Part shown: positions 3,187 through 46,858 of the stretch, in pieces
Layout of the letters: every line of letters begins with the position of its first letter
Position numbering within the stretch: position 1 is the stretch's first letter
DNA from: Blastocatellia bacterium
GTDB lineage: Bacteria > Acidobacteriota > Blastocatellia > UBA7656
Assembly: GCA_045807765.1 (NCBI GenBank)
Contig: JBJMGU010000271.1
Location: forward strand, 1,200-65,199
Reading direction: 5' to 3'
DNA length: 64,000 nt
Translations under genes and position numbers: made by a program
The notes under the pieces: model-generated
Database searches by the model: none
What the model saw: the letters and a program-made list of their open reading frames with translations, nothing else
Told to the model about the DNA's origin: nothing

Positions 3187-3209
3187 TTCCCTCTGCTACC
3201 CTTCCTGCG

Positions 3210-4544: not shown

Positions 4545-4632
4545 GGTTGAGCCGCTCGGCGGTCACTTATCACATTCAAGATCGAGACCAATTATCGCAA
4601 TCAGGATCGAGACCGAAGTCGGAGGAGGACTT

Positions 4633-5429
4633 ATGCCGGAATGGTTCAAGCTATTAGGCATCGCTATTGTTGTCATCGGCCTGGCGCTCAAGCTGCGCAC
4701 GACGCTGGTCGTGGTCGTCGCGGCGCTGGTTACGGGATTGCTCGCCGGCATCCCGCTGTTTTCGAGCGCCGGCTTCTTTGAGGGCCTGCCTTATCTGACG
4801 CAGCCGGGCAAAGAAGGCATCATCAACATGCTGGGCCGCGCCTTTGTTGACAACCGTCTGATGACGCTATTTATGCTGACGCTGCCGGCCATCGGCCTTG
4901 CCGAGCGCTACGGCTTGCAAGAGCAATCGGCGCGATGGATTCAGCGAATTCGCGCCGCGACCGTCGGGCGGTTGAGCCTGGTTTATCAGTTGTTCCGCGT
5001 GCTGCACGGCATCATGGGCGTGCGGCTCAATGGCCATCCGCCGTTCGTCCGCCCGCTGGTCTTCCCGATGGCTTTAGGCGCTGCCCAATCGCAAGCGGGT
5101 CGGCAAAGCGCCGACGAGCTGCCCGAAGCAAAGGTCGAAGAGATTAAAGCGGCGACCGCCGCCGCTGAAAACTACGGCAACTTTTATGGACAGAACCTGT
5201 CGCCGGTGCAGCCGGGCATCCTGCTGGTCTTCGGCGTGATGGCGGGCCTCGGTTATCAAGTCAGCGTCTGGCGGCTGGTGCTGTTCACGACACCGATTGT
5301 TGGGTTATCAATTATCCTCGCCGCCCTGCAATTCCACTGGCTCGACCGACGTTATCGAAAAGAGGCGTCCGCCGCCGCGCCGCCAACTTCAGACGGCGAC
5401 GCGGCGCTCGAAGGAAAGGCGGTGTCGGT

Positions 5430-5433
<4 letters not shown>
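4633..5433 (+). CDS. Integral membrane protein, DUF969-like (first gene of a membrane-protein pair)
   Basis: ATG at 4633 is preceded by GGAGGAGG. The protein has multiple TM helices ([21 protein letters not shown]...). Its stop overlaps the next gene's start (ATGA). The family assignment is from memory of DUF969/DUF979 pairs and is not verified. Confidence 0.6.
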
Positions 5434-6413
<980 letters not shown>

Positions 6414-27251: not shown

Positions 27252-28586
27252 ATGCAAGAGAGCAGGCCGGGCCGAAAGGTTGGATACGTCGAGCTGTTGC
27301 GCGGCAATCGCCACTTTCGGCGGCTGACGATTGGCCGGCTGATCTCGCAGACCGGCGACTGGTTCAACAGCGTCGCCCTCTTTACCCTGCTCTTGAACCT
27401 CACGGGATCGGGCGAAGCCATCGGCCTCGTCCTTATCATCAAGCTGCTGCCGCAATTTCTGGTCGGGCCGCTGGCCGGCGTCGTCGCCGACCGCTTCAAC
27501 CGCAAAGCCATCATGATCTGGGCCGACTTGCTGCGCGGGGTGCTGGTCTTCGGCTTTCTCTTCGTCAATCGCCCCGAACAGGTGTGGATCGTTTATCTGC
27601 TCGCGGGGCTCGAAATCATCCTCTCATCTTTTTTTGAGCCTGCCGAATCTGCCGCCGTGCCGACGATTGTCAAGCGCGAAGAGTTGATCGCCGCTAATGC
27701 CCTGAGCGGCGCAACCTGGTCACTGACGCTGGCCTTCGGCGCAGCACTGGGCGGCGCGGTGACCGACCTCTTCGGCAGAAATACCGCTTTCGTCATTGAC
27801 GCTATTTCGTTCTTCATCTCTGCCGCCTTCATCTGGGCGACGCACATTCCGCCGCTGCCGAAACGCGAGCGTGACAGCGCCCAGCGCATGTCGTGGCTTG
27901 AGCTGACCGGCATCGCCGACATGATCGAAGGCGCGCGGTATTTGAAGACTAACCCGCACGTCATCGCTCTGCTGCTGGTCAAGAGCGGCTGGGGGCTGGG
28001 CGGCGGCGTGCTGTTGTTGCTGGCCATCTTTGGCCGCGAGATATTTCCGATGGGACATGACGGCAGCGCGTCGATTGGCTTGCTCTATGCGGCGCGCGGC
28101 ACGGGAGCGCTGCTCGGGCCGATGATCGCCACATGGATCACCGACGATTCGCCGCGCCCAATGCGCCGCACGATCAGCATCGCCTTTTTTGTCTCGGCCA
28201 TCTTCTACCTGTTATTCTCGGGCTCGCCGTCGCTCGTGCTGGCGCTGCTGTTCGTCATCGGCGCGCACGCGGGCGGCAGCACCCAGTGGGTCTTTTCGAC
28301 GACGCTGTTACAACTGGCGGTGCCGAATCGTTTCCTCGGTCGCGTCTTCGCGCTAGAGATGGGCTTTCTGACGCTGGCGATGTCGCTGTCAACTTACGTG
28401 ACCGGCTGGGGCATAGACCACGCCGGCCTGAGCGCCCGACAGATGGCCGCCTGGCTTGGCGCGGCTTTCCTGATACCGGGGCTGGCGTGGCTGGCCTTGC
28501 AACGCCAGCTTGATCGCTGGGAACAGAACGAGCGCGGCGCGCTTCTACCCACCACAACCATCGCCGATCAAGAGAGCGCACCCTGA
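27252..28586 (+). CDS. MFS transporter
   Basis: 444 aa with about 12 TM segments and typical MFS loop motifs, e.g. GPLAGVVADRFNRK. Confidence 0.85.
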   Translation: MQESRPGRKVGYVELLRGNRHFRRLTIGRLISQTGDWFNSVALFTLLLNLTGSGEAIGLVLIIKLLPQFLVGPLAGVVADRFNRKAIMIWADLLRGVLVFGFLFVNRPEQVWIVYLLAGLEIILSSFFEPAESAAVPTIVKREELIAANALSGATWSLTLAFGAALGGAVTDLFGRNTAFVIDAISFFISAAFIWATHIPPLPKRERDSAQRMSWLELTGIADMIEGARYLKTNPHVIALLLVKSGWGLGGGVLLLLAIFGREIFPMGHDGSASIGLLYAARGTGALLGPMIATWITDDSPRPMRRTISIAFFVSAIFYLLFSGSPSLVLALLFVIGAHAGGSTQWVFSTTLLQLAVPNRFLGRVFALEMGFLTLAMSLSTYVTGWGIDHAGLSARQMAAWLGAAFLIPGLAWLALQRQLDRWEQNERGALLPTTTIADQESAP

Positions 28587-28752
28587 ATGGGGAAGCCAGC
28601 CACAGGCCATGCAAGAAGCCGTGGCGTCGGCATTCAATCCATGCAGTCAACAGAGTAAACGGCTGCCGGCTCCGGCATGGATAACAGACCGGAGAGAGAA
28701 GAAACAACCAGCGATATTCAGCTATCGGCCCGTGCAGTTCAGGAGAGAGTCA

Positions 28753-30957
28753 ATGAGATTCAGGTTACTTGCTGTGCTTGGGTTCGTTCTTTTTATGGGC
28801 GGTGCCGCCTTCGGCCAGGGGGTCATCATCCCCGACGAATGCCACCGCTGCCCGCCGCTGCCCCACCCGCTGCCGCAACCGCTGCCACGCGTCCTCAACG
28901 TCAAATCGGTAAAGATCACTACAAAGATCGATTCGCAGGTAGCGACGACGAAAGTCGAACAGGTCTTCGAGAACCCGTCGCCTTACCGGCTCGAAGGCGC
29001 TTACTTCTTTCCCATCCCCGAGAGCGCTTCGATCTCGGATTTCGCCATCTATGACGGCGACAAGCGCATGGCCGCAGAGATCGTTGAAAAAGCGCGCGCA
29101 CGGCAAATCTATAACGAGATTGTCCGCCGGCAGATCGATCCCGGCCTGCTCGAATACGTCGGCAAAGACCTCTTTCAAGCGAGCGTCTTCCCCATCGAGC
29201 CGCGCTCGACCAAGAAGATCGAGCTGACCTATTCGCAGGTGCTCAAGAGCGAAGGCGGCACCGTCAGCTACCGTTATGATCTGGGCTCAGGCCGCCGCAT
29301 TCAGCCATCGCCCATCAAAGAGATTGCCGCCTCGGTCGAGATCAACTCGCCGATCGATCTGAAAAACATCTTCTCGCCGTCGCACAAAATCTCCATCACT
29401 CGCGACGGCGAGCGACGAGCGCGTTTGAGCTTTGAAGGCGTCGGCGCTGACACGCAAAAAGATTTCCTGCTCTATTACTCGCTATCGGAAAAAGATTTCG
29501 GGCTGTCGCTGTTGACCAACCGCGAGCCGGGCAAAGACGGTTACTTTTTAATGCTGGTTTCGCCGAAGTCGAACATTGCCGATCAGGAGCGCCTGGCGAA
29601 AGACATCGTCTTCGTGCTCGACACCTCGGGCTCGATGAGCGGCGAGAAGATAGACAAGGCGAAGGCGGCTTTAAAGTTCGGCGTCGAATCCTTAGGCGAG
29701 CGCGACCGTTTCAACGTCATCTCGTTTTCCGGCGAAGAACATCTGATGAAAGCCGGCTTGATCCAGGCCGACCGCGCTGGCAAGCAGGCGGGCGTGAAAT
29801 TCATCGATAACCTGCGCGCCGAAGGTGGCACCAACATCAACGACGCGCTGATCGCCGCGCTCAAACAGTTTCAATCCGCCGAGCGTCCGGCAATGGTGGT
29901 CTTTCTTACAGACGGCCTGCCGACGGTCGGCCCCACAGACGTCAAAGACATCGTCCGTAATGCCGCCGGCGCCAACCGCGCCAATGTGCGGCTGTTCACC
30001 TTCGGCGTCGGCTATGACGTGAACACCAACCTGCTCGACAAGCTGGCGGCGGACAATCGCGGCGTCAGCGATTACATCGAGCCGCAGGAAGACCTCGAAA
30101 TCAAAGTCTCGAACTTCTTCGCGCGCGTCAACTACCCGGTGTTGTCGGATCTGAAGCTCGACTTCGGCGGCGTCGAAGCCGAGCTGCTCTACCCGCGCAC
30201 GCTCGGCGATCTGTTCAAGAACTCGCAACTGGTGATCGTCGGGCGCTATAAGAACAATGTGAGCGCCGCCACCATCCGCCTGACCGGCAAGGTCGGCAAC
30301 CGCGAAGAGACGTTTACTTTCGCGGGTCAGCAGTTTCCCGCCGAGCGCAGCGACAACGCTTTTCTCGGGCGGCTGTGGGCGACGCGGCGTGTCGGCTACC
30401 TGCTCGAACAGATTCGCCTGAACGGCGAGAACACGGAAGTCAAAGACGAGATCATTCAGCTCGGCACGCGCTATGGCATCGTCACGCCGTACACATCTTT
30501 CCTGGTGACTGAAGACATGAAAGACATCGGCAGGATCAGGCGTCCTGGCGAGCCGCTGCCGCCGCCGTCAGCCCGGCGCGCGCTTGACGCCATGACCAAG
30601 GCTGCGCCCGCCAGCGATTCCGGCTTTGAGGGCACGGGGGCGCGACAATCGAGCGGCGAATCGGCAGTCGTCTACAGTCAGGCCGAAAAGAAGATGAAGG
30701 AATCGGACAAAGTAGACAGCCCCGATTCGTACCTGATGAGTGTTCGCACCGTCGCTGACAAGACCTTCAAGCTCAAAGGCGACGAGTGGGTGGACACCGA
30801 GTTCAAAGACACAGGGGCGCTGCCGCAGGTCAACCTGCAATTCGGCAGCGACGAATTCTTCAACCTGATTGCCAAAGAGCCGAAGCTCGCCGAGTACTTT
30901 GCGCTCGGCAAGAAGGTCACGGTCGTCTACAAAGGCAAGGTCTATCGCGTGACATAG
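28753..30957 (+). CDS. Secreted VIT (vault/inter-alpha-trypsin) plus von Willebrand factor A domain protein
   Basis: Start MRFRLLAVLGFVLFMGGAAFG (signal peptide), AGGAGAGAG upstream. MIDAS motif VFVLDTSGSMSGEKIDKAKAAL. The N-terminal VIT-like region precedes the vWA domain. Confidence 0.8.
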   Translation: MRFRLLAVLGFVLFMGGAAFGQGVIIPDECHRCPPLPHPLPQPLPRVLNVKSVKITTKIDSQVATTKVEQVFENPSPYRLEGAYFFPIPESASISDFAIYDGDKRMAAEIVEKARARQIYNEIVRRQIDPGLLEYVGKDLFQASVFPIEPRSTKKIELTYSQVLKSEGGTVSYRYDLGSGRRIQPSPIKEIAASVEINSPIDLKNIFSPSHKISITRDGERRARLSFEGVGADTQKDFLLYYSLSEKDFGLSLLTNREPGKDGYFLMLVSPKSNIADQERLAKDIVFVLDTSGSMSGEKIDKAKAALKFGVESLGERDRFNVISFSGEEHLMKAGLIQADRAGKQAGVKFIDNLRAEGGTNINDALIAALKQFQSAERPAMVVFLTDGLPTVGPTDVKDIVRNAAGANRANVRLFTFGVGYDVNTNLLDKLAADNRGVSDYIEPQEDLEIKVSNFFARVNYPVLSDLKLDFGGVEAELLYPRTLGDLFKNSQLVIVGRYKNNVSAATIRLTGKVGNREETFTFAGQQFPAERSDNAFLGRLWATRRVGYLLEQIRLNGENTEVKDEIIQLGTRYGIVTPYTSFLVTEDMKDIGRIRRPGEPLPPPSARRALDAMTKAAPASDSGFEGTGARQSSGESAVVYSQAEKKMKESDKVDSPDSYLMSVRTVADKTFKLKGDEWVDTEFKDTGALPQVNLQFGSDEFFNLIAKEPKLAEYFALGKKVTVVYKGKVYRVT

Positions 30958-30971
30958 ATCGCCGGCACAGG

Positions 30972-31070
30972 AAATGATGAATGATGAATGATGAACGATG
31001 AATTAGGGAGACCAGTCCCATTGCGGTGGGCGCAAGCTCCGGCAGTTCATCATTCATCATTCATCATTTG
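30972..31070. repeat. Intergenic hairpin with a stem of tandem ATGATGA heptamers
   Basis: aaatgatgaatgatgaatgatgaacgatgaa - ~40-nt loop - ttcatcattcatcattcatcattt. The core stem is 24 bp perfect. It lies between the vWA gene stop and the purD start. The ORF-track 30988 'MMNDE' start is an artefact of this repeat. Confidence 0.6.
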
Positions 31071-31122
31071 CCTTGATGTGGCTTTGTTTTTTCGTAGCGG
31101 CGCGAAGTACAATCGCGATGCT

Positions 31123-32391
31123 ATGAACATACTGGTCATCGGCTCTGGCGGGCGCGAGCATGCGCTCTGCTGGAAGCTCAAACAATCGCCGCGCACCACA
31201 GCGCTCTTCTGCGCGCCCGGCAACGCCGGCATCGCCAGGATCGCCGACTGCTTGCCCGCCGATGTGAAGGATGCGGGCAGCCTCGCCAACCTCGCCGAAG
31301 CCATCAAAGCCGACCTCACCATCATTGGCCCTGAAGCGCCGCTGGTCGCTGGCATCAGTGAAGCCTTTCAGGCGCGCGGCCTCAGACTGGTCGGCCCATC
31401 TGCCGACGCAGCACGGCTCGAAGGCAGCAAGATTTTCGCCAAGCAGTTCATGGCACGTCACCAGATTCCCACGGCGCAATTTACTGCCTGTCATTCGCCC
31501 GAATCGGCGCGCGCCGCGCGTGAGCTTGAATTTCGCTTCCCCGTCGTCATCAAAGCCGACGGATTGGCCGCCGGCAAGGGCGTGCGAATCGCTCAAAATG
31601 AAAGCGAGTTCGACGCCGCGATTCAAGACTTGATGGTTGACCGCATCTTCGGCGACGCCGGGACGCGCATCGTCCTCGAAGAATGTCTTGTCGGGCGCGA
31701 AGCCTCTGTGATGATCTTTACAGACGGGCTGGATTACAAAGTGATCGCCCCGGCGCAGGACTACAAGCGCGTCAATGATCATGACGAAGGGCCGAACACC
31801 GGCGGCATGGGGGCGTTTTCGATGCCGGGGCTGATTGACGAAGCGACGATGGCTCGCATCCGTGCTGAAGTGATCGAGCCGGCGCTCGCCGGATTGCGCG
31901 CTGAAGGTTATCCGTTCAAGGGCTTCCTCTACGCCGGTCTGATGTTGACCGCTGACGGCCCGAAGGTCATCGAGTTCAACGCACGCCTGGGCGACCCGGA
32001 GACTCAGCCCATCCTGATGCGCCTCGATAGCGATCTGGTTGACATCTGCGAAGCCATTGTCGACAGGCGTATCGGCGCAACCGAAGTGCGCTGGAGCGAT
32101 GATGCGACGGTGTGTGTCGTCGCGGCGTCGGGCGGTTATCCCGGCGATTTTGAGAAGGGCAAGGCCATAAGCGGGCTTGATGAAGCGGGCGCGGTCGAGG
32201 GCGTCGTCGTCTTTCATGCCGGCACGGCGCGCGATACAGGCGGCGGCCTCGTGACCTCAGGCGGGCGCGTGCTGGGCGTCACGGCGTGGGCGGCGTCGCT
32301 CGAATCGGCGCGGGCGCGGGCTTACGAAGCAATAGGCAAGATTCACTTCGAGCGAATGCACTATCGCAAAGACATTGCCGCGCAAGGATGA
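31123..32391 (+). CDS. purD: Phosphoribosylamine--glycine ligase
   Basis: MNILVIGSGGREHALCWKL... is the classic PurD N-terminus. ATP-grasp fold, about 422 aa. Confidence 0.9.
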   Translation: MNILVIGSGGREHALCWKLKQSPRTTALFCAPGNAGIARIADCLPADVKDAGSLANLAEAIKADLTIIGPEAPLVAGISEAFQARGLRLVGPSADAARLEGSKIFAKQFMARHQIPTAQFTACHSPESARAARELEFRFPVVIKADGLAAGKGVRIAQNESEFDAAIQDLMVDRIFGDAGTRIVLEECLVGREASVMIFTDGLDYKVIAPAQDYKRVNDHDEGPNTGGMGAFSMPGLIDEATMARIRAEVIEPALAGLRAEGYPFKGFLYAGLMLTADGPKVIEFNARLGDPETQPILMRLDSDLVDICEAIVDRRIGATEVRWSDDATVCVVAASGGYPGDFEKGKAISGLDEAGAVEGVVVFHAGTARDTGGGLVTSGGRVLGVTAWAASLESARARAYEAIGKIHFERMHYRKDIAAQG

Positions 32392-32419
32392 GCTATCCGA
32401 ACCATCGCGAGCGGATCAT

Positions 32420-33361
32420 ATGATGAAAATCACTCGACCGATCACTTTTACCGCATCGTTGCTGCTATCGCTCGCTCTCTGCGCCATGGCGCAGACCGTC
32501 GGCCCGCGTCCGCTGACCCCGGCGACCATGCCTCTGGGCGACCGTATGCGCAAAGAGCTGGCCGAGTTCAAAGGCAAGGCCACTTTATTCGCCAAGAATC
32601 TCGACAGCGGCGCGAGCTTTGGCGTCGGCGAAGACCAGCGCGTCAGCACCGCCAGCACCATCAAAGTCACAGTGATGATCGAAGCCTTTGCCCGCGTCGC
32701 CGAAGGCAAAGCGAAATGGCGCGACGAAGTCGTGCTGACGGACGCCAAGAAAGTTGGCGGCTCAGGCATTCTGCATGACCTCTCGGATGGCCTGCGCCTC
32801 AGCCTGCGCGACGCCGTCACCTTGATGATGACGATCAGTGACAACACGGCGACCAACCTGGTGCTGGACTTTCTCGGCATTGATACGGTGAACGCCCGCA
32901 TGGAATCGCTCGGGCTGCACCAGACGCGTGTGCTGCGCAAAGCCTTCGGCGGCGGTACAAGCCGCGCGGGCGAAGACCCTGCGCTCAAGCCTTACGGATT
33001 GGGCGTGACGACGCCGCGCGAGATGGTGACGTTGTTGGAAAAGCTGGAACGCGGCGAGGTGATCAGCCGCGAAGCATCACAAGAGATGCTGGCGCTGATG
33101 AAGCGCGAGCAGATGCACGACGGCATCGGGCGGACGTTGAACGGCGTCGAGATGGCGACCAAGTCGGGCGCGCTCGATCAACTGCGCAGCAACGTCGGCA
33201 TCATCTACACCAGGCGTGGTCGCATCGCGATGGCGATTACCTGTAATGACATGCCGGAGGTTGATTGGACAGAAGAGAATGCCGGCCTGCTGATGCTGTC
33301 GCGGCTGTCGCTCATCCTCATGGATGGGCTAGGGCAATCGCCCGCTGACCCACATCGGTAA
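32420..33361 (+). CDS. Class A beta-lactamase-related serine hydrolase (secreted)
   Basis: Signal peptide MMKITRPITFTASLLLSLALCAMAQ. Class A motifs STIKV (SxxK), SDN (ISDNTATN) and KSG (ATKSGA). Confidence 0.75.
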   Translation: MMKITRPITFTASLLLSLALCAMAQTVGPRPLTPATMPLGDRMRKELAEFKGKATLFAKNLDSGASFGVGEDQRVSTASTIKVTVMIEAFARVAEGKAKWRDEVVLTDAKKVGGSGILHDLSDGLRLSLRDAVTLMMTISDNTATNLVLDFLGIDTVNARMESLGLHQTRVLRKAFGGGTSRAGEDPALKPYGLGVTTPREMVTLLEKLERGEVISREASQEMLALMKREQMHDGIGRTLNGVEMATKSGALDQLRSNVGIIYTRRGRIAMAITCNDMPEVDWTEENAGLLMLSRLSLILMDGLGQSPADPHR

Positions 33362-33363
33362 GT

Positions 33364-33409
33364 CCCGGCGTTGAAAAGCCGGGCTAAATTCATTGCGCCG
33401 CTACGCGGC
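33364..33409. other. Conserved ~46-nt two-hairpin intergenic element, copy A (copy B at 58883-58929)
   Basis: cccggcg TTGAAAAGCC gggCTAAAtTCATtgcGCCGCtACGCGGC. About 85% identical to copy B. Hairpin 1 is CCCGGC/GCCGGG, with compensatory variation in copy B. Hairpin 2 is GCCGC-NAC-GCGGC. Confidence 0.4.
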
Positions 33410-33447
33410 GACAAACATTGCGAACGCAATGGAGCTCGTTAACTCAA

Positions 33448-33804
33448 TTACTTCGGCTCGACCGCGCCGCCGACATCGAGCCATGCATCGAAGCCGCCTT
33501 CTAAGGCATATGACCGCTGGAAATCATGATCACGGAGTACTTGCGCCACACGGGCGCTTGAGCCTTCGTGCGGTCAGGTGCAATAAGTCACGATCATGCG
33601 GTTGCGCGGCATGTCGGCCAGATGTTGCTCGATTGCATCAGCCGGCACACGCACCGCGCCCGGCAAGCGCGTGTCGGCGGCGGCCCAGGCTTGCGGGTTG
33701 CGCGCGTCAACGAAGTAAACCGCTTCGCCGCGATTCATTCTATCGATCACATCGCTCGCCGAGATTCGCAAAGGCTCTGGCGCATTCTGCACATTGGCGC
33801 TCAT
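33448..33804 (-). CDS. Single-domain rhodanese-like sulfurtransferase with an in-frame TGA at 33576-33574: candidate selenoprotein (Sec at the catalytic position) or nonsense pseudogene
   Basis: The ORF track ends at ...MIVTYCT*. Reading through the TGA in the same frame continues PHEGSSARVAQVLRDHDFQRSYALEGGFDAWLDVGGAVEPK* to a TAA at 33450-33448. The downstream segment aligns with the GlpE catalytic segment (quoted from memory) (C)YHGNSSKGAAQYL...DGGFEAW, with the TGA at the catalytic Cys column. Confidence 0.6.
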
Positions 33805-34031
33805 TTGTGTTACCTCCTGGATGAATTCGCGCTCATCTGAAATTAAAAGGCAATCACTATACCGCGCGCCCGCGGCGTCTGGGTCAACACGGCGCGTCAG
33901 GTTGTATGGTTCGCGCGCTCAGGCTGTCCGATTCGCCGCCATTGACACTGCCTCTGAAGCTCAACTATCATCGGGATTAATGCATTTGACTCGTCTGCGA
34001 ATGCCTTTGACCTTTAGCCAAGGAGAAGCGA

Positions 34032-35711
<1,680 letters not shown>

Positions 35712-35727
35712 TGAAAGGCGATAAGCA

Positions 35728-35946
35728 ATGGGCACCCATCAGCATTCCATACGAGGCGTCATTGAAGGCGGTCAGGTTAAGCTGCTTGAGCCGATCACGC
35801 TTGCCGATGGAACGGTTGTCGAAGTCATGATTACTGTGCCATCGGGAAACGAGCAGGCGCGCGAGCGTCAACGCCAGCTCTTGCGCAGGGGGCTTCATCT
35901 CGGCGGCCCGCCGTATCCGCGGCGTGAGGAACTCTATGAGCGATAG
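35728..35946 (+). CDS. vapB: VapB-like antitoxin (SpoVT/AbrB-like fold)
   Basis: 72 aa. IRGVIEGGQVKLLEPITLADGTVVEV is typical of AbrB-type antitoxins. It overlaps the downstream PIN gene. Confidence 0.6.
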   Translation: MGTHQHSIRGVIEGGQVKLLEPITLADGTVVEVMITVPSGNEQARERQRQLLRRGLHLGGPPYPRREELYER

Positions 35947-36361
35947 AATGCTCGTGGACACGAATATTCTAGTTTATGCTTATGACGTTGATGCCGGATC
36001 GAAGCAAGTGAAGGCGGCAGAGGTTCTCGACAAGCTTTGGGTTCAAGGCAATGGTGTACTTGCCACACAGGTGCTTGCTGAATTCTTTATCACAATTACT
36101 CGCAAGGTCAAACAACCTCTAGCCCTGCCTGATGCCCGACAGATAGTTGAAGATTACTGCAATGGTTGGGCGATTCTAAACACCACGCCCGACTTTGTAA
36201 TCAAGGCGATTGCAGGTGTCGAGCGATACAAGCTATCGTTTTGGGACGCAATGATCTGGGCGGCGGCAGCATTGAACGAAGTGCCGACCATTTATAGTGA
36301 GGATATGCAGCACGGCCAGATCATTGAAGGCGTGCGAATCGAGAATCCCTTGAATATTTGA
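35936..36361 (+). CDS. vapC: PIN-domain toxin VapC
   Basis: [13 protein letters not shown] (first Asp), [10 protein letters not shown], and [10 protein letters not shown] (PIN acidic residues). It lies in a low-GC segment. Alternative starts are at 35924 and 35948. Confidence 0.8.
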
Positions 36362-36365
36362 TCTT

Positions 36366-36785
36366 ATGACTGACCAACGCATCAGAGTGTTGTTAGCCAA
36401 GCCCGGTCTCGACGGCCATGACCGCGGCGTCAAAGTCATCGCGCGCGCGCTGCGCGACGCCGGCATGGAAGTGATCTACACCGGCCTCAGGCAGACGCCC
36501 GAAATGGTTGTCGGGGCTGCCGTGCAGGAAGACGTAGACGCCATCGGCCTGTCCATTCTGTCCGGCGCGCATATGACCCTCTTTCCGCGCGTCGTCGAAC
36601 TGGCGCGCGAAGCCGGGCTCGATGATGTGATCGTCTTCGGTGGCGGCATCATCCCCGACGAAGACATTCCGAAGCTGAAAGAGCAAGGCGTCTCCGCCGT
36701 CTTTACCCCCGGCACACGCATGGAAGAGATCATCGAATTCATCCGCCGCCACGCCCGCCGCGCCACAGCCATCAACAGCAACTAA
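36366..36785 (+). CDS. Cobalamin (B12)-binding subunit of a methylmalonyl-CoA mutase family enzyme
   Basis: 139 aa. B12-binding motif [30 protein letters not shown] (DxHxxG). Confidence 0.85.
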
Positions 36786-36862
36786 ATTCAGAAGCCGTGC
36801 GCCGCGCACCCGGCTGTCATATACTTCGCTCATCGCTAGCGACTAATTATTTGGACAAAGCG

Positions 36863-37444
36863 ATGGGCGAAGGGCTGGCTGATATGATGGACGGCGCGCA
36901 ACTGAGAGAAGCGCTCGAAGCGCACCACCGTGACGCCTGGGGCTGGGCGCTGGCCTGTTGCGTGCGCCATCCAGGGGACGCCGAAAGCGTTTTGCAGATG
37001 GCTTATCTGAAGATACTTGAAGGCAAAGCGCGCTTTGGCGGCGCCTCGTCGTTTCGCACCTGGCTGTTTGCCGTGGTGCGCAACACGGCGAGCGATTATC
37101 GCCGCCGCGAATGGCTCAACCGATTGCGGCTGAGCCGCCACGCCGAGAGCGCGCCGCCACCTGCCGCCCGCCACTTCGACGACGACGTTTATCGTTCACA
37201 AGTGCAGTCACTCTTTCAGCGCGCGCTACGCGCTTTGCCGCGCCGCCAGCAGGAAGCCTTGCAACTGGTCTTTTATCACGACCTCAGCGTGGCGGAAGCG
37301 GCTGAAGTGATGGGCATTACCGTCGGTTCGGCGCGCACACATTACGAGCGCGGCAAGCGACATCTGCGCCGGCTGATGGCCGAGTCAGGAGTTAACGATG
37401 AATCGCAACTCGGAAGAGCAGAAAATCAAGCGATGGTTCCATGA
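36863..37444 (+). CDS. ECF-type RNA polymerase sigma-70 factor
   Basis: Region 2 FRTWLFAVVRNTASDYRRRE; region 4 LPRRQQEALQLVFYHDLSVAEAAEVMGITVGSARTHYERGKRHLRRLM. The start is uncertain between 36797, 36863 and 36884. Confidence 0.8.
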   Translation: MGEGLADMMDGAQLREALEAHHRDAWGWALACCVRHPGDAESVLQMAYLKILEGKARFGGASSFRTWLFAVVRNTASDYRRREWLNRLRLSRHAESAPPPAARHFDDDVYRSQVQSLFQRALRALPRRQQEALQLVFYHDLSVAEAAEVMGITVGSARTHYERGKRHLRRLMAESGVNDESQLGRAENQAMVP

Positions 37445-37934
37445 AGCGCGACAGGCGGACGCCGCGCTTGCGCCTTCGTTTGCAGAGACGGTCACGGTGG
37501 CGCGAGCGAAACAACTACCCGCTGCCCGGTGGTCGCTCGCCTGGCGCTTTGCTCTGGGCGCCGTCGTGCTGGTGGCCATCGGCGTTGCCGCTCTGGTCTT
37601 CTTTAAGCGGTCAACACCGCAACCCAATCAGCAGACCGCCGAACAGGTGGAGATTCCAGAGCCGCCACCGGCCAACGTTGCGCCGGAGATTACTGCCACC
37701 GTTCCCGCGCCAGTAGTCAAAGCGCGTGCGGTGGCTTTGCGGGTCACGCCGCGTCGGCCACGCGCCACCCGGCCACGACCGGAGATTGAGCCGGCAGCGC
37801 TTTTGAGCTTCAAGTGGCAATCGCCAACCGACTTTTTGTTGCGCACGCCGGGCGCTGACTTGCTGAAAACCGTGCCGCGCGTCAACGACTCAGTAGTTCG
37901 CTTCGACATTATTCGCCCTGATGAACAAAACTGA
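37398..37934 (+). CDS. Putative anti-sigma factor (single-pass membrane protein)
   Basis: It overlaps the sigma gene 3' end by 47 nt. It has one TM helix LAWRFALGAVVLVAIGVAALVFF and a Pro-rich periplasmic tail. Confidence 0.55.
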   Translation: MNRNSEEQKIKRWFHEARQADAALAPSFAETVTVARAKQLPAARWSLAWRFALGAVVLVAIGVAALVFFKRSTPQPNQQTAEQVEIPEPPPANVAPEITATVPAPVVKARAVALRVTPRRPRATRPRPEIEPAALLSFKWQSPTDFLLRTPGADLLKTVPRVNDSVVRFDIIRPDEQN

Positions 37935-37946
37935 AATGGAGGATTT

Positions 37947-38378
37947 ATGAGAGGACTCATGAGCCGAAGAATTCTTACCTTAATCACCTTCTTACTCTTG
38001 ACCGTTGCCACAGCGCGCGCCCAACAGCCCGCAACCGATCACCTGGGCGAGGCGTTCTTTTCGCCCGATCTGGTGATGCAGCATCAACAGATCATCGGCC
38101 TAACCGAGCAGCAGAAGTCCATCTTCAAGACTGAGCTGCGCAAGGCGCAAATGCGCTTCACCGAGTTGCAATGGCAACTGAGCGACGAATCGGAAAAGCT
38201 GGTGGCACTCGTCAAACAGGAAGCTGTGGATGAGCAGGCGGTCCTGACGCAACTCGACAAAGTGCTCAACGCCGAGCGCGAGGTCAAACGGACGCAACTG
38301 TCGCTGCTCATCCAGATTCGCAACAACCTGACGCCCGAACAGCGCGCCAAGCTTACCGAATTGAAACGCGAGAAATGA
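37947..38378 (+). CDS. Periplasmic Spy/CpxP-family (LTxxQ motif) protein
   Basis: Signal peptide MRGLMSRRILTLITFLLLTVATARA. Repeated LTxxQ motifs: GLTEQQKSIF and NLTPEQRAKL. Confidence 0.6.
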   Translation: MRGLMSRRILTLITFLLLTVATARAQQPATDHLGEAFFSPDLVMQHQQIIGLTEQQKSIFKTELRKAQMRFTELQWQLSDESEKLVALVKQEAVDEQAVLTQLDKVLNAEREVKRTQLSLLIQIRNNLTPEQRAKLTELKREK

Positions 38379-38470
38379 TGAAGCGAAGCGATGAGTGATG
38401 AACGGATGTGATGACGGCAGGCATCTCGCCGCCTGCCTTCCCGCAATTCATCACTCATCGCCCATCATTA
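38372..38470. repeat. Imperfect long hairpin rich in GATGA units between convergent genes
   Basis: aaatgatgaagcgaagcgatgagtgatgaacggatgtgatgacggcaggc / gcctgccttcccgcaattcatcactcatcgcccatcattatttt. There is a central ggcaggc...gcctgcc stem, and gatgagtgatgaa pairs with ttcatcactcatc. Confidence 0.5.
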
Positions 38471-38842
38471 TTTTTCGCCGCCTTCGGGGCCGTAAAACAG
38501 CACCCACACGGCGAAGTCGTCGCTGAAGCGCTCGAACCAGTGGGCCTCGCCGGCGGCGGCAAACAGGAAATCGCCCGCCTCGAACATCTGCCGCGCACCC
38601 TCGCAGACATACTCGCCGTGACCGCTGACGACAATGTAAACCTCGTCGCGGCTGTGCGGCTTCTGCGGATCGAAGCCACGCGGCGCGTAGACTTCGAGTT
38701 GTAGGCTGCCATGCGTGAATAAAGTCACAAAACGCTGACCGCCCTCTTCGGGGAGTTTGGCCAGCGCTTCTTGAAAGCCAACCTTTCGTCGGCCCTCGAC
38801 TTCGGTATTATCAGTGTTATGGGAAGTGGGATCGTTGCTCAT
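38468..38842 (-). CDS. Cupin-domain protein
   Basis: 124 aa. Cupin motifs G(X)5HxH... are approximated by FTHGSLQLEVYAP...VYIVVSGHGEYV...AGEAHWF. Confidence 0.75.
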   Translation of the reverse strand: MSNDPTSHNTDNTEVEGRRKVGFQEALAKLPEEGGQRFVTLFTHGSLQLEVYAPRGFDPQKPHSRDEVYIVVSGHGEYVCEGARQMFEAGDFLFAAAGEAHWFERFSDDFAVWVLFYGPEGGEK

Positions 38843-39114
38843 CGTCCACCTGAGTCTAATGATGTTCAGAGCCGTTTGCGATTGAGTTTGCCATGTAGCG
38901 CAATCCGATAGATTGCGCTACACCCAATTGAAAACCGCTCTAAGGCAGCTAACCGTGATTGTCCGACAGAACGTTGGGCGAGAGCAAGCGACGCGACGCC
39001 CGCCAGTCCATCGCCGTCATAGCGCCGGACTTTTTCTGTCGTTATAGTATGCTTCGTAGGCGCGATGCTTGAGCAGCCTTTGTGCGCTGCGAGAATCTGG
39101 CAGGAGAGAATAAG

Positions 39115-40062
39115 ATGGAAAAGCGTCAACTCGGCAAATCAGGATTACAGGTTGCCCCGCTCACATTCGGCGGCAACGTCTTTGGCTGGACGGCAGACGA
39201 GCCGACCTCGTTTCGGCTGCTGGACGCCTTTGTCGCCGCCGGCTTCAACTTCATAGACACGGCAGACATCTACTCCCGGTGGAAGCCGGGCAATCAGGGC
39301 GGCGAATCTGAAACCATCATCGGCAAGTGGCTGCGGCAGCGCGGCAACCGAGACCGTGTGATCATCGCCACAAAAGTCGGCCTGGACATGGGGGACGGCA
39401 AGAAGGGACTATCGGCGTCTTATATCCAGCGTGCCGCTGACGATTCGCTGGCGCGTTTGCAGACTGACTACATCGATCTCTACCAGTCACACACGGACGA
39501 TACGGAGACGCCGCTCGAAGAGACGCTAGGGGCCTTCGCGCAGTTGATTGAACAGGGTAAGGTGCGCGCCATCGGCGCGTCGAACTATTCGGGCAAGCGG
39601 TTAGCCGAAGCCCTGGAAGTCAGCCGCAAGCACGGCTATCCGCGTTACGAGAGCCTGCAACCGAACTATAACCTCTACGACCGCGCGGAGTATGAGGCCG
39701 ACATGGAGCCGGTCTGTCTTGAGCACGGCGTTGGCGTTATCAGTTACTATTCGCTGGCCAGTGGCTTTCTAACGGGCAAGTACCGTTCGGAGGCGGACCT
39801 GGCAAAAAGCCCGCGCGGCAAGGGCGTCCAGGCTTATCTGAACGAGCGCGGCTTTCGGATTCTGCGAGCGCTCGACGAAGTTGCCGGCGCTTATCATTCG
39901 ACGCCGGCGCAGGTGGCGCTTGCCTGGCTGATTGCCCGTCCGAGCATCACTGCTCCTATCGCCAGCGCCACCAGCCTGGAACAACTTGACGACCTGATCG
40001 CCGCCGCGCATCTGCAATTGGATCAGCCGGCGATTGAGAAATTGAATCAGGCGAGCGCCTGA
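39115..40062 (+). CDS. Aldo/keto reductase
   Basis: MEKRQLGKSGLQVAPLTFGGNVFGW...DTADIYS...; AKR family, about 315 aa. Confidence 0.9.
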   Translation: MEKRQLGKSGLQVAPLTFGGNVFGWTADEPTSFRLLDAFVAAGFNFIDTADIYSRWKPGNQGGESETIIGKWLRQRGNRDRVIIATKVGLDMGDGKKGLSASYIQRAADDSLARLQTDYIDLYQSHTDDTETPLEETLGAFAQLIEQGKVRAIGASNYSGKRLAEALEVSRKHGYPRYESLQPNYNLYDRAEYEADMEPVCLEHGVGVISYYSLASGFLTGKYRSEADLAKSPRGKGVQAYLNERGFRILRALDEVAGAYHSTPAQVALAWLIARPSITAPIASATSLEQLDDLIAAAHLQLDQPAIEKLNQASA

Positions 40063-40116
40063 GCGCCTGCCCTGATTAACCGATGCGAGCGGCTGACGGC
40101 GCGGCTAGATAGCCTG

Positions 40117-40515
40117 CTACTCTCTGGTCGTGCCGAGCCGCTCTGCTGTTTCAACGCCAATCAACAGGTTCCAGAGGTTGTAATGCACGTCGTCTTTGGC
40201 GACGTAGTAATTCTCAGGCTCCGCCGTCATGTCACCTGTAGCGGTGAACTCGCCGCGCTCCAGGTCCTTCAGATCAACATAGGTCGCGCCCTGCTTCAGC
40301 CGCGCCCCTTCGGGCTGCACGACGATCTGCTTGAGGTCGTCATCGAGCAGATCGTTTAACCGACGGTGCGCGTCTTTGATGTCGTAAGCCGTGCGCGTCG
40401 GAGCCGCAGCCGGCGTACCGATGTTCTGCCCGGCCATCGGGTTCGTGTTCAAGTCGCGCATGTACTCCTGCGGGTGTTTGTCGAGGTCGGCTTCCTGCGG
40501 TTTTTCCTTTGACAT
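40117..40515 (-). CDS. Hypothetical protein (132 aa)
   Basis: Start MSKEKPQEADL, with GGGAGGAG 4 nt upstream. The longer ORF-track N-terminal extension lacks an RBS. Confidence 0.6.
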   Translation of the reverse strand: MSKEKPQEADLDKHPQEYMRDLNTNPMAGQNIGTPAAAPTRTAYDIKDAHRRLNDLLDDDLKQIVVQPEGARLKQGATYVDLKDLERGEFTATGDMTAEPENYYVAKDDVHYNLWNLLIGVETAERLGTTRE

Positions 40516-40660
40516 AACTCCTCCCTGATAGGCAATTGCCCAACAGCGCCCGCTTATCATAATTGCAACGGCCATGCCATGCGCGGCGCGGCTTCTGCGG
40601 CCTTCACCGGCGCAACGGGCTGCCAGGCTGAAACGAAAAAAGACGTATGAGTTTGCTGCA

Positions 40661-40885
40661 ATGTTTGACAATTCTGCCAAAGTCGAAGCGCTTATCAAGC
40701 GGGCCGAGGACTTCCACACACGGCGGCGCGACAGTTTTCCGAATATTGCCGACCCGTTTCCGAAAGTCCACCGGCATACCTTTCACCGCACCGCCACGCA
40801 AGGGAAACAATTCTTTTACTACTATGACCCTGCCGCCTGCGGCTCGGCGAACCCCACCTACGGCACGATCATCATCAAGCCGTAA
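40661..40885 (+). CDS. Small hypothetical protein (74 aa)
   Basis: GC3-biased ORF MFDNSAKVEALIKRAEDFH.... An alternative minus-strand ORF covers the same region, so this call is weak. Confidence 0.35.
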   Translation: MFDNSAKVEALIKRAEDFHTRRRDSFPNIADPFPKVHRHTFHRTATQGKQFFYYYDPAACGSANPTYGTIIIKP

Positions 40886-41078
40886 CCGCCGCGCCACGGC
40901 TGGCGGTCGCTCTGGCCTGAAATGTAAAAAGATGTCCGCTCTCGACTTTCCGTTTGACGACGCCACAAAAAACGCATAGCTTCATCGGTGGAGAGCAGTT
41001 CCCTGCTCTCCACATCTTAACCTGTGGCTGCCGCCCGGTGGTTGCGCAGCCAGGAATCTAACCCGAAAGAGAATTCCG

Positions 41079-42554
41079 ATGAAACATAAACTTGTGACGT
41101 TTGTGTTTCTGCTCGCCCTGGCTGCGCCAGCGGCGGCGCAGGCAAAGAAGACAGAGGCCACAGACTGGCACGATGTCACCCGTGACGTCTTCGTCAACAA
41201 CGATCTGGACCGCGGCGCGCAGGTCTTGACCGCCGATAACCCGACGCGCCTGGCGCTGATCTCGGCCAAGCTCGATGCCGCCATCGTGCTCGATGTCACA
41301 GAGAAGACCATGAGCGCGATGCCGAAAGACGCTTTTCATTTCGCTGCCGACCGCGCCTCGGCGAAATCCGATGCTGGCGTCGAGCTGAAGCCCGCGGGCA
41401 AGTTCACGCGCATCGACGGGCCGATCTATTCGTTTGCAGTCGGCGGCCTGCCGGTGTTGATCCGCGCGCATCCGGGCGCAGTCGGCGAACTGACTTTTGA
41501 CAAGCTCTGGGAGACCGTCCCGGTGTGGCGCGCCGAGATGGAGGCTTACACGCCCGACGCCAGGGCGGTCGCGGCGCTTAAAGCCATTGATAAAGACACA
41601 CAGCTCACTGTGATCTTCGGCACATGGTGTGGCGACAGCAAATACTATGTGCCGCGGCTGCTGCGGGCGTTGAAAGAGGCCGGCAACAACCATCTGCAAG
41701 TTAAGCTCGTCGGCGTAGACAATCAATTTCACGAGCCGGTCGCCACAGTGCAGCCGCGCCAGTTAACCAATGTGCCGACCATCATCGTCGAACGCGATGG
41801 GCACGAGACCGGGCGCATCGTCGAGACGCCTGCCGTCGAGCTGATCGAGCAAGACCTCGCAGACCTCTTGAGCGGCAAGGCAAATCCGCACAAGGGGCGC
41901 TTGGAGCGCGGCGCGAAAATCGCCTCGGGGGCTTATCAATACAAGGACGCGGGCGGCAAGCTGCGCGGCTCGGAAGATTGGGAGATGTTCAACACCGCAG
42001 ACGGTGGCCTGCTCCTGCACAGCCGCGTGGTGATGGGCGATGTCGTCACGGAAGTCTTCGAGCGCACCAACGCGCAGCACGCGCCGACCTATGTCGAGAT
42101 CACCCGCCAGCGCAATGAAGCGCGATCTCGCACCCGCATCAACATTGACAGCCACACGCTGACCGCCCGCATGCGCAGCAGCATCAGCGGCATCATTCAA
42201 CAGACGGTCGAACTGCCTGACGCGTTCAGCCTCCGCCTGCCGGCGATTGCCGCTGATGGCCTGCGGCTCGCCGACCTGAAAAGTGGTGAAACCTACAAGG
42301 CAGCTTGCTACCTCTCGCCGGCAGAGTTCGACGGCGCAATGGGGTCGCTGGCTGAGATGAGGATTGAGAGCAAAGCCGACGAAGCGGTGCGCGTGCCGGC
42401 GGGCGATTTTCAGGCGCGTCATTTCATCCGCAAGGGCGAAAAGGAGACGAGCCACCTGTGGCTGCACCCGCAACTCGGCGTGCCTGTGCGCGGCGAGGCC
42501 AATGGGTTGGCGTTCGTGCTAACCGCGCTTGAGCTTGCGCCGCCAGCGAAGTAA
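41079..42554 (+). CDS. Secreted hypothetical protein with a thioredoxin-like segment
   Basis: Signal peptide MKHKLVTFVFLLALAAPAAAQA. The segment TVIFGTWCGDSKYYVPRLLRALKEAGNNHLQVKLVGVD resembles a thioredoxin-fold beta-alpha-beta unit with a single Cys. Confidence 0.7.
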   Translation: MKHKLVTFVFLLALAAPAAAQAKKTEATDWHDVTRDVFVNNDLDRGAQVLTADNPTRLALISAKLDAAIVLDVTEKTMSAMPKDAFHFAADRASAKSDAGVELKPAGKFTRIDGPIYSFAVGGLPVLIRAHPGAVGELTFDKLWETVPVWRAEMEAYTPDARAVAALKAIDKDTQLTVIFGTWCGDSKYYVPRLLRALKEAGNNHLQVKLVGVDNQFHEPVATVQPRQLTNVPTIIVERDGHETGRIVETPAVELIEQDLADLLSGKANPHKGRLERGAKIASGAYQYKDAGGKLRGSEDWEMFNTADGGLLLHSRVVMGDVVTEVFERTNAQHAPTYVEITRQRNEARSRTRINIDSHTLTARMRSSISGIIQQTVELPDAFSLRLPAIAADGLRLADLKSGETYKAACYLSPAEFDGAMGSLAEMRIESKADEAVRVPAGDFQARHFIRKGEKETSHLWLHPQLGVPVRGEANGLAFVLTALELAPPAK

Positions 42555-42617
42555 GCTATCGGCATCAAAGCTTGCGTGGACTCTCCAAATGTCAAGTTGA
42601 ACCAGGAGGAACCTTCA

Positions 42618-42875
42618 ATGAAGACCCGAATCAGTCGTCGCTCAGTGTTGAACACGATTGTGCCGGCGGCGCTTGTCAGCTTCGCATTTCCGGCGAGCGC
42701 CAAAGCCGCCGACCAGCCACATATGCAAGCGGCGCTCGATGCGCTCAGGCTCGCCAAGCGCGAGCTTGAACAGGCGACCGATGACAAAGGCGGCCACCGC
42801 GGCAAGGCCATCGGCCTGGTCAATCAAGCGATGAATCAGGTCGAGCGCGGCATTCAGTTCGACCGCAGGCATTAA
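42618..42875 (+). CDS. Small secreted hypothetical protein (85 aa)
   Basis: Start MKTRISRRSVLNTIVPAALVSFAFPASAKA (RR-containing signal peptide), with GGAGGAAC upstream. Confidence 0.5.
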   Translation: MKTRISRRSVLNTIVPAALVSFAFPASAKAADQPHMQAALDALRLAKRELEQATDDKGGHRGKAIGLVNQAMNQVERGIQFDRRH

Positions 42876-42946
42876 TCGTCGAGCGGCTGGCGAGTGGCGG
42901 TTGTCATCTTCGCCAGCCGCGCCGCTTGTACGGTGCGCCGCGTCGT

Positions 42947-43828
42947 TCATTGGACGCGGCGGCTGGCCTGCGGCAGCGCATGGCGCTGGAAGAACTCGAC
43001 CACGAGCGGCAGCGCCTCGGTCGGAAATTCGTGGCCGCCCGGATGCAGGTAAGTCGCCAGCTCGATCCCGTCGCTCCCCGGCTCAATTCTTAGATATCCT
43101 TTGCTGACCGCCCGCGCCGCTTCGGTATGCAGCACACGGCGCGCCAGCCCAACGCTTAACATCTGCCCTTCGTAAGGCACGAGCGGATCACGCTCGCCGG
43201 CGATGATGAAGAGGGAGCGCGGCTTAACCTGTTCGAGCAGCCGCCCGCCCTGTCCCGAAGCCGAGCAGAAAGCGGCGAACGGTTCGCCGCGCATTGCCCA
43301 TAAGACGTTCACAAAGCGCGCGCCGTTCGAGTGACCGAGCGCGTAGACGCGGCTCGGATCAACTTTGTAACGCCTTTCAATCTCGCCCTGCATCGCATCA
43401 ACAAAGCGCACGTCGCGGTCATTCATCTCGCCGGGATTCTTCTGCCAGCCATTGCGCTTGCCTTCCGGGTCGGTGATGCCGACGACGCCCGGCAACCCTT
43501 GCAGGTAAGCGACCGTGGCTTGCGGCCACAGCTCGTGCAGGCGCATGCGGCGCGCGACGAGCTGCGCGGTGCCGCCGTGGCCATGAAAGACCAGAACGAG
43601 CGGCGCGCCGCCCTGCGGCACGGGCGACGTGGCGGCAAAGACCAGCGCGGTGCGCGGCGCGCCGTCCACTGTGACCGTCAGGGTCGCCGCTTCACCGCGG
43701 GCGCTAACGAAACTCGCGGGATTGCGGCCCTGCCTTGCGGCGGCGTCCGAGCGCACGCCACAGCCGGCGGCGATCAACAATCCAATTATCAAGCTCAAGG
43801 CTACAACGGTTCGAGAGATGGCTCGCAT
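42947..43828 (-). CDS. Lipoprotein alpha/beta-hydrolase (esterase / PHB-depolymerase-like)
   Basis: Lipobox LLIAAGC. Oxyanion-hole region LVFHGHGG; nucleophile elbow GHSNGA. Confidence 0.75.
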   Translation of the reverse strand: MRAISRTVVALSLIIGLLIAAGCGVRSDAAARQGRNPASFVSARGEAATLTVTVDGAPRTALVFAATSPVPQGGAPLVLVFHGHGGTAQLVARRMRLHELWPQATVAYLQGLPGVVGITDPEGKRNGWQKNPGEMNDRDVRFVDAMQGEIERRYKVDPSRVYALGHSNGARFVNVLWAMRGEPFAAFCSASGQGGRLLEQVKPRSLFIIAGERDPLVPYEGQMLSVGLARRVLHTEAARAVSKGYLRIEPGSDGIELATYLHPGGHEFPTEALPLVVEFFQRHALPQASRRVQ

Positions 43829-44083
43829 GGCATATCCTTTCTACCTTTCATCGGCTGGCGCTGCTTTATTCGGCGCCGTTTCTTTAGACAGTCGCCGGCC
43901 CGCGAAAGTCGTGATAGTTATTTGAAAAGCCGTGCGCCGCGCCCGCCGCTTGCCGCTGATTTTTCGCCGCCGACCGCGCTTGACAAGCCGCGCCGGGTAC
44001 ACGATGCTAATTGTTTGGCTAAGGGCGATAATTTCCGCCCAGTGCGCATCACGAACTTATCAGAACTCATAGGAGACTGTCAG

Positions 44084-46858
<2,775 letters not shown>

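Follow-up and report, generated by a model that had tools for sequence, protein, structure and literature searches.

A PIN-type toxin-antitoxin-like gene pair between the catalytic and B12-binding subunit genes of a Blastocatellia acyl-CoA mutase

How does a toxin-antitoxin-like gene pair come to lie between the two subunit genes of a single metabolic enzyme, and what keeps it there? The question is raised by a locus in a 64,000-nucleotide (nt) stretch of DNA from a Blastocatellia bacterium (GenBank assembly GCA_045807765.1, contig JBJMGU010000271.1, positions 1,200 to 65,199), which is referred to below, at its full length, as the window. In this locus, the genes for the large, catalytic subunit (mcmL) and the small, B12-binding subunit (mcmS) of an acyl-CoA mutase are separated by two small genes, one for a 72-amino-acid (aa) antitoxin candidate and one, here called vapC, for a VapC-like PIN-domain toxin candidate. 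The explanation favoured here, with a probability of about 0.7, is that the pair is a functional, selfish PIN-type toxin-antitoxin cassette that rides on the expression signals of the mutase operon, was acquired once by a subclade of the Blastocatellia and behaves as an exchangeable allele.

The open reading frame (ORF) calls give four tightly packed genes on the same strand (Table 1), of which the inner pair exactly occupies the 654-nt gap between the subunit genes. The antitoxin gene begins 16 nt after mcmL, it overlaps the PIN ORF by 11 nt, and 4 nt lie between vapC and mcmS. The PIN ORF starts at the ATG at 35936, preceded by GAGGA, and its MSDR or MNDR N-terminus is kept in all orthologs. 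Contigs obtained independently, from samples in ENA, JGI, Logan and NCBI, show the same arrangement; the contigs and loci of relatives that were compared carry L-numbers below. A preliminary description of the window had reported a vapBC pair that fills the gap exactly and in the same orientation between the catalytic and B12-binding subunit genes. The coordinates agree with it and the toxin family score lies above its cutoff, so that this observation is confirmed; the interpretation attached to it is partly supported.

The product of vapC scored 41.8 bits against PF01850 (cutoff 23.6, E = 1.9e-10), and in an alignment of 28 homologs with 49-88% identity the four acidic catalytic residues, D8, E49, D104 and D123, were invariant. 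When a profile of the family was searched against the PDB, only PIN proteins were returned, namely PcrIIC1 (8wmm, E = 6.5e-11) and VapC43 of M. tuberculosis (7vwo, E = 0.002), and the acidic residues of the window protein align with acidic residues of PcrIIC1. Against TIGR00028, the mycobacterial VapC family (Mtu_PIN_fam), the score was 20.2 bits, below the cutoff of 73.6. By these scores the protein is classed as a PIN protein that falls outside the mycobacterial TIGR00028 subfamily. More than 1000 relatives of the family were obtained by homology search, which also supplied the near-identical homologs; a look-up of the exact product returned no recorded gene. The ratio of nonsynonymous to synonymous substitutions (dN/dS) of vapC is 0.04-0.14, which indicates purifying selection. 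As a separate observation, PcrIIC1 is the nearest solved structure to this PIN subfamily, ahead of any crystallised VapC.

The partner protein is harder to place. It reached 20.5 bits against PF01954 (AF2212-like, formerly DUF104/COG2880), for which the cutoff is 21.6, and 8 of 12 of its homologs also match this family weakly. The antitoxin candidate is hence described as a weak COG2880/DUF104 (AF2212-like) match and not as a demonstrated classical VapB. Its homologs are labelled by JGI as 'predicted DNA-binding antitoxin AbrB/MazE fold protein', and a search for sequence matches in the PDB returned none. The AlphaFold model, with a predicted local distance difference test score (pLDDT) of 70.7, consists of a small N-terminal beta domain, a single helix and an extended conserved C-terminal tail of 16 residues. 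The gene is under purifying selection (dN/dS 0.09-0.34). In 15 of 15 contigs that were fetched and contain the pair, whether at a mutase locus or elsewhere, it immediately precedes the PIN gene and overlaps it by the same length; this constant pairing, whatever the neighbours, is the behaviour of a two-gene toxin-antitoxin unit. The combination of a PIN protein with a COG2880/DUF104 protein was predicted as a toxin-antitoxin pairing of the VapBC-like class (Makarova, Wolf and Koonin 2009, PMC2701414).

The composition of the two genes differs. The G+C content of vapC is 0.484, with 0.52 at third codon positions (GC3), which makes it the lowest value among the 55 window ORFs that encode 100 aa or more (mean 0.595, standard deviation 0.033). 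Between 36000 and 36300 the G+C content dips to 0.50, against about 0.60 in the surroundings. The antitoxin gene, at 0.598, is not deviant in this respect, although its GC3 of 0.63 is lower than the 0.78-0.82 of the mutase genes. The description of the pair as low in G+C thus stands for the toxin gene but not for the overall G+C of its partner. In three diverged relatives, all in which it was measured, vapC keeps a G+C content of 0.47-0.48.

The age of the insertion can be read from its distribution. All PIN homologs with at least 78% identity occur in the order antitoxin-PIN-mcmS, and the pair precedes mcmS in seven or more independent contigs, with a large-subunit identity to the window of 88-97% (96-97% in L002 and L083-L085, 93% in L087, 92% in L086 and 88% in L088). 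The genes downstream of mcmS in L087 differ from those of the window. In L088, two M16 peptidase genes (2613-5792) are found between mcmL and the antitoxin gene, so that the pair evidently travels with the small-subunit gene. PIN homologs with 73% identity or less (144-aa forms) adjoin unrelated genes, such as Band_7 and endonuclease V, and have upstream spacers of 161-184 nt. In the outgroup Blastocatellia locus L003 (large subunit 85% identical), a 121-bp spacer, which holds no substantial ORF, separates the subunit genes. When the mutase genes were placed in a neighbour-joining tree, the branching order from the root was L003 (empty), L088, L086 with L087, L097, the window, and the sister tips L096 and L083. 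The vapBC carriers L088, L086 and L087 are deep branches in this tree and the outgroup is empty; hence, vapBC was gained once, before L088 split off. The identity of vapC to its relatives (99, 88, 84 and 78%) shows that the cassette diverged roughly alongside the mutase genes.

Relative to L003, the cassette is, on these alignments, an insertion, and the comparison dates it as old and clade-wide in this group of Blastocatellia, neither private to the window nor recent. Given the absence of the cassette from L003 and the occurrence of homologs with 73% identity or less in unrelated contexts, horizontal acquisition is the best reading of its origin. It had been proposed from the window alone that a horizontally acquired toxin-antitoxin module was integrated into an operon, and this remains the best reading, supported by the empty outgroup, the foreign composition and the homologs elsewhere. 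An ancestral, conserved arrangement with no compositional deviation had been named as the finding that would speak against it; the arrangement proved to be conserved, but the deviation persists in vapC. The flanks of the cassette showed no target-site duplication, no terminal inverted or direct repeats and no attC-like site, and no recombinase gene was found in the neighbourhood; the locus corresponds to neither an integron cassette, nor a transposon, nor an insertion sequence.

Two repeat features were observed in these relatives. In L088, a run of CAGTTCT/CAGTTTT heptamer repeats occurs at about 5680-5720, just past the M16 peptidase genes. The spacer of L003 (1614-1720) holds a hairpin of about 33 bp made of G-rich heptamer-like units (-62 kcal/mol, z = -8.1), which may represent a repeat element or else an RNA structure between the cistrons; this inverted repeat is absent from the window.

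The space between the subunit genes is polymorphic among close relatives. The closest relative found, L096, is a 33.7-kb contig that is syntenic with the window over 28056-46200. Its large-subunit protein is 98.9% identical, and its small subunit is 100% identical where aligned, the called gene having 136 aa, 3 fewer than in the window; in nucleotides, the identity is 96.5% in the large-subunit region and 95-96% in the small-subunit gene. The two sequences cease to be homologous at the mcmL stop codon (35711) and align again from 36365, one base ahead of the mcmS ATG. Between these points, L096 carries 503 nt that encode a basic 65-aa and an acidic 86-96-aa protein, both unrelated to vapBC. 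The same alternative cassette is present in L097, an NCBI Blastocatellia metagenome-assembled genome (MAG), with junctions of 4, 2 and 6 nt. A 982-bp soil contig, L001, encodes a small-subunit protein 100% identical to that of the window behind a different upstream gene. The G+C content of the alternative cassette is 0.48-0.50, against 0.62-0.64 in its flanks.

The acidic protein of the alternative cassette is modelled confidently as a helical hairpin (pLDDT 84). Neither Pfam nor the PDB yielded a relative of its 96-aa form, and a structure search gave generic coiled-coil matches only. It belongs to an orphan family, with no more than 32 matching cluster representatives in a set of 1.84 billion proteins. 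When all four cassette proteins were searched with PADLOC, none gave a significant match, the best E-values (0.008 and 0.034) both belonging to the 96-aa protein. The two genes may form a new toxin-antitoxin-like pair. A scan of the window for paralogs found no second copy of either cassette.

L096 and L097, which have the alternative cassette, are intermingled in the tree with vapBC carriers (the window, L083). The L096 and L097 copies share 81.6% nucleotide identity, and since they are so well diverged, both alleles must be old. Recent exchange is suggested by the comparison of the window with L083, in which the flanks show 47 differences in 974 nt (4.8%) and the cassette 7 in 653 (1.1%), which is 4.5-fold less (Fisher p = 1.4e-5); the flanks have a synonymous divergence of 0.17-0.19 and the cassette one of 0.02-0.04. 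L002 follows the same trend: the 363 nt of mcmL that were compared differ at 9 positions, and the 267 nt of cassette are identical (p = 0.012). In comparisons with more distant relatives, the cassette keeps pace with its flanks or diverges faster than they do, so that a lower mutability of the cassette does not explain the deficit. The simplest reading is that the cassette allele has recently moved between lineages by homologous recombination in the conserved mutase genes. A bolder extension can be formulated, in which the inter-subunit space would be a promoter-less slot where rival addictive two-gene modules displace each other by homologous recombination via the mutase genes; the alternative pair would represent a new toxin-antitoxin-like family, and each cassette, with mcmS 4-6 nt downstream, would hold the expression of this essential enzyme subunit hostage to the translation of the cassette itself, as a second layer of addiction. 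This extension is speculative and, on balance, considered unlikely.

How the genes are expressed is suggested by their spacing. The only plus-strand promoter-like site detected by a consensus scan of 33300-38500 lies ahead of mcmL, and the same scan found no promoter-like site over 33971-36785 and no terminator-like site from mcmL to mcmS on this strand. The 16 nt upstream of the antitoxin gene leave no room for the promoter and operator that are typical of canonical, autoregulated type II modules, and none was found there. A free-standing homolog has a promoter-like site within its longer upstream spacer. No clear Shine-Dalgarno sequence of its own was seen for mcmS. In relatives with adjacent subunit genes, the spacing is commonly -18 to about +50 nt; translational coupling of mcmS is thus probably ancestral and would now run through vapC. 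It had been suggested that the insertion affects subunit stoichiometry or regulation, and an effect on stoichiometry is plausible in view of the 4-nt spacing.

The host enzyme itself is identified by strong matches of mcmL to PF01642 (738 bits) and TIGR00641 (752.5 bits, cutoff 303.8) and of mcmS to PF02310 (91.9 bits) and TIGR00640 (178.7 bits, cutoff 57.45), by which the two are assigned to the B12-dependent acyl-CoA mutase superfamily in its split form. Among solved structures, the large subunit matched HcmA (4r3u) best, at 577 bits, against 455-478 bits for methylmalonyl-CoA mutases (MCMs). HcmA is a 2-hydroxyisobutyryl-CoA mutase. The alignment places Phe at the position of MutB Tyr89, Gln at that of MutB Arg207 and Ala at that of HcmA Asp117; the window reads RQFAGF and IAQKEW, and the corresponding MCM motifs are RQYAGF and MVRNTY. 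Tyr89 and Arg207 (P. shermanii MutB numbering) form the signature that binds the substrate carboxylate, and the large subunit of the window has neither. The combination of Phe, Gln and Ala is the pattern of isobutyryl-CoA mutases. The enzyme is probably not a true MCM and has isobutyryl-CoA-mutase-like residues, which is a caution for annotators, since an 'MCM-family' enzyme here bears isobutyryl-CoA-mutase-type specificity residues.

The subunit genes of such enzymes had been described as normally adjacent or fused. A survey of 160 split-mutase loci, 80 from a genome scan and 80 from a metagenome scan, counted genes as adjacent up to 220 nt and sought the partner within 4 kb. The metagenome scan was queried with the small subunit and, among the matches listed, contains only relatives of 74% identity or less, which makes it unsuited to counting cassette alleles in close relatives. 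The genome scan gave 19 adjacent loci, 14 with genes between, 34 with no partner within 4 kb and 13 undetermined; for the 80 metagenome loci among the matches listed, the figures were 27, 5, 11 and 37, respectively. Among these matches, adjacency was thus found in 46 of 110 informative loci of both scans, 19 of 110 had intervening genes and 45 of 110 were unlinked, having no partner within 4 kb. The description as normally adjacent or fused thus holds in part only, and annotators should note that split acyl-CoA mutase subunit genes are often not adjacent. The occupants of such slots in relatives include a secreted protein of about 255 aa, an alpha/beta hydrolase, HhH-GPD glycosylases, a thioesterase, a DUF4126 membrane protein, a glyoxalase-family (epimerase-like) gene, PD-(D/E)XK genes and an AbiEi-like gene. 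Two Acidobacteriaceae have a PIN gene with an 80-87-aa partner in the inter-subunit slot, on the opposite strand (L035:7752-8437 and L072:7779-8440, minus), the two copies being 54% identical to each other. An inverted copy of the window insertion was considered for them and rejected, as their PIN proteins have no detectable similarity to that of the window; the event was independent.

The favoured explanation starts from what was demonstrated, i.e., the gene identities, intact active-site residues, the action of purifying selection, conservation across the clade, an outgroup site that is empty, the precise cassette swap and the divergence deficit of the cassette. On this basis, the pair would be a type II module composed of a predicted VapC-like RNase toxin of the PIN type and a small COG2880/DUF104-like antitoxin. 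The ancestor of one Blastocatellia subclade would have taken it up horizontally, after which it would mostly have been inherited with the operon, in which it is embedded co-directionally, apparently without destroying it. Transcription would most likely start at the mutase promoter, and the four cistrons are linked by junctions of 16, -11 and 4 nt, so that the small subunit is probably translated in the wake of the toxin ORF. The pair would persist as a selfish, addictive cassette rather than as a part of the mutase chemistry. The slot is polymorphic, as very close relatives have another low-G+C cassette there, and the pair would move between lineages by homologous recombination, with the conserved mutase genes as homology arms. 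Toxicity and its neutralisation, co-transcription, translational coupling and addiction as the cause of persistence are the deduced parts of this account.

Several points weigh against it. The toxicity, the neutralisation and the RNase activity of the pair are predictions, and the family assignment of the antitoxin is sub-threshold in Pfam. A Foldseek search of the antitoxin model against the PDB gave non-significant matches only and did not recover AF2212 (2NWT), and neither protein of the pair matched PADLOC-DB 2.0 at E-values up to 1. Recent recombination is deduced from a few short metagenome contigs, and the promoter and terminator sites are consensus matches, from which the promoters of Acidobacteriota may differ. 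Lastly, that the pair has been kept at mcmS in L088 despite its separation from mcmL could hint at a functional tie.

Such a tie is the core of the first of two less probable accounts, in which the pair would be a domesticated regulator, kept for the benefit of the host, that tunes the mutase operon, for instance through RNA cleavage setting the ratio of large to small subunit or in response to B12 or acyl-CoA stress. The linkage of the pair to mcmS is kept throughout the clade, even at a synonymous divergence above 1 and when split from mcmL, there is no room for a promoter, the 4-nt junction ties the translation of mcmS to vapC, and a parallel exists in the mutA-mutB-mazE4-mazF4-Rv1496 locus of M. 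tuberculosis (PMC8477398). A pair with such a role would, however, hardly be expected to be replaced by an unrelated cassette in L096, where the large subunit is 99% identical and the aligned small subunit identical, nor to be missing from L003 and most Acidobacteriota, while its homologs with 73% identity or less adjoin unrelated genes. A regulatory role is accordingly judged improbable.

An anti-phage module of the abortive-infection type, set in a small defence hotspot where the alternative cassette would be another defence or counter-defence pair, is about equally improbable. Defence loci are typically present or replaced at strain level, low in G+C and exchanged by recombination, the nearest solved structure is that of a PIN-type accessory nuclease of type II-C CRISPR systems (PcrIIC1), and an unrelated PIN pair of independent origin, an AbiEi-like gene and PD-(D/E)XK genes are found in other occupied slots. 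Yet the four cassette proteins have no significant match in PADLOC, no CRISPR or other defence genes lie nearby, and most occupied slots in relatives contain ordinary genes (hydrolase, glycosylase, thioesterase, epimerase).

It is very improbable that the pair is a decaying or inert remnant that merely fills intergenic space; the scores of the antitoxin in Pfam and of the toxin in TIGR00028 would suit such a remnant, but no carrier has a broken reading frame, the catalytic residues do not vary and dN/dS lies clearly below 1. A chimeric assembly can practically be dismissed, for although the window is probably derived from a MAG and an identical antitoxin occurs in an NCBI Blastocatellia MAG, the same junctions recur in contigs that are independent of one another and come from no fewer than six samples and four sources.

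Table 1. Positions of the features of the mutase locus and of the alternative cassette (window numbering unless a relative is named)
Feature	Position	Strand	Basis or remark
Sigma-70-like promoter candidate, TTGACA-18-TATCAT, 11/12	33942..33971	+	consensus match only
mcmL, acyl-CoA mutase large (catalytic) subunit, 559 aa	34032..35711	+	PF01642, TIGR00641
Spacer, 16 nt, with Shine-Dalgarno-like GAAAGG	35712..35727	+	
Antitoxin candidate, 72 aa	35728..35946	+	PF01954 sub-threshold, constant PIN partner
PIN-domain (VapC-like) toxin candidate, 141 aa	35936..36361	+	PF01850
mcmS, B12-binding small subunit, 139 aa	36366..36785	+	PF02310, TIGR00640
Terminator-like stem-loop 3' of mcmS	36826..36842	+	consensus match only
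Alternative cassette	L096:7764-8266, L097:924-1424, L001:1-362		slot equivalent to window 35712-36364

The surroundings of the operon also vary in some places. Downstream of it lie a gene for a sigma factor of the extracytoplasmic function (ECF) type (36797-37444), an overlapping 178-aa ORF with no family match (37398-37934), which is possibly an anti-sigma factor, and then a gene for a Metal_resist (PF13801) protein (37947-38378). This trio is conserved in L083, L086 and L096 and is replaced in L087. Upstream, 579 nt of the window (33362-33940) are absent from L096; they contain a 76-aa rhodanese-domain ORF on the minus strand (33574-33804). L086 has the segment too, and an ORF of 76 aa occurs at the corresponding place in L087. 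Further downstream, about 850 nt (40064-40914) are absent from both L096 and L083, with a 200-aa ORF of no known family on the minus strand (40117-40719).

Among known systems, the closest family for the pair is the PIN-COG2880 class of VapBC-like modules (PMC2701414). Shared with it are the small upstream gene for an AF2212-like beta-domain protein, its overlap with a PIN gene of about 140 aa with four acidic residues, and the occurrence of the two-gene unit in many unrelated contexts. The window pair differs in that its antitoxin match is sub-threshold and that, with 16 nt upstream, it has no usual autoregulated promoter and operator; the subfamily is known from sequence alone. As for PcrIIC1 (PDB 8wmm), it is the closest protein by sequence profile, similar in length and with aligned acidic residues. 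The similarity is distant, however, no CRISPR-Cas genes lie near the window pair, and the window protein is paired with an antitoxin-like gene.

The slot resembles the variable hotspots of defence and accessory genes in its non-homologous, low-G+C alternative cargo, conserved flanks, precise breakpoints and signs of recombinational exchange. It differs from them in lying inside an operon, between two subunits of one enzyme, in the small size of its cargo (about 0.5-0.65 kb) with no room for a promoter, and in having no integrase, attachment-site-like repeats or duplications.

The closest published arrangement is the M. tuberculosis locus mutA-mutB-mazE4-mazF4-Rv1496, in which a MazEF pair lies 13 nt past mutB and has 4-nt overlaps with its neighbours (PMC8477398, Table 3). 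In both cases, a toxin-antitoxin pair is tightly and co-directionally placed inside the operon of a B12-dependent acyl-CoA mutase; a pair in such an operon is, given this precedent, not new. The mycobacterial module is a MazEF and not a PIN module, and it follows a fused catalytic/B12 subunit and precedes Rv1496 instead of lying between subunits. Rv1496 is a MeaB-type G-protein chaperone, and the mycobacterial locus is not known to have an alternative cassette. New in the present case are the placement of the pair between the two kinds of subunit, catalytic and B12-binding, its retention throughout the clade and the presence of an alternative cassette in the same codon-precise slot. If the favoured explanation is true, the locus is a compact natural case of a chromosomal toxin-antitoxin module housed by a metabolic operon that stays intact. 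Co-occurring soil strains with alternative cassettes at the same position would offer a test bed for whether such modules persist by addiction or by usefulness, for the mutual exclusion of rival cassettes, and for the effect of translational chaining through a toxin ORF on the stoichiometry of a two-subunit enzyme. It would be an instructive yet essentially ordinary selfish gene module.

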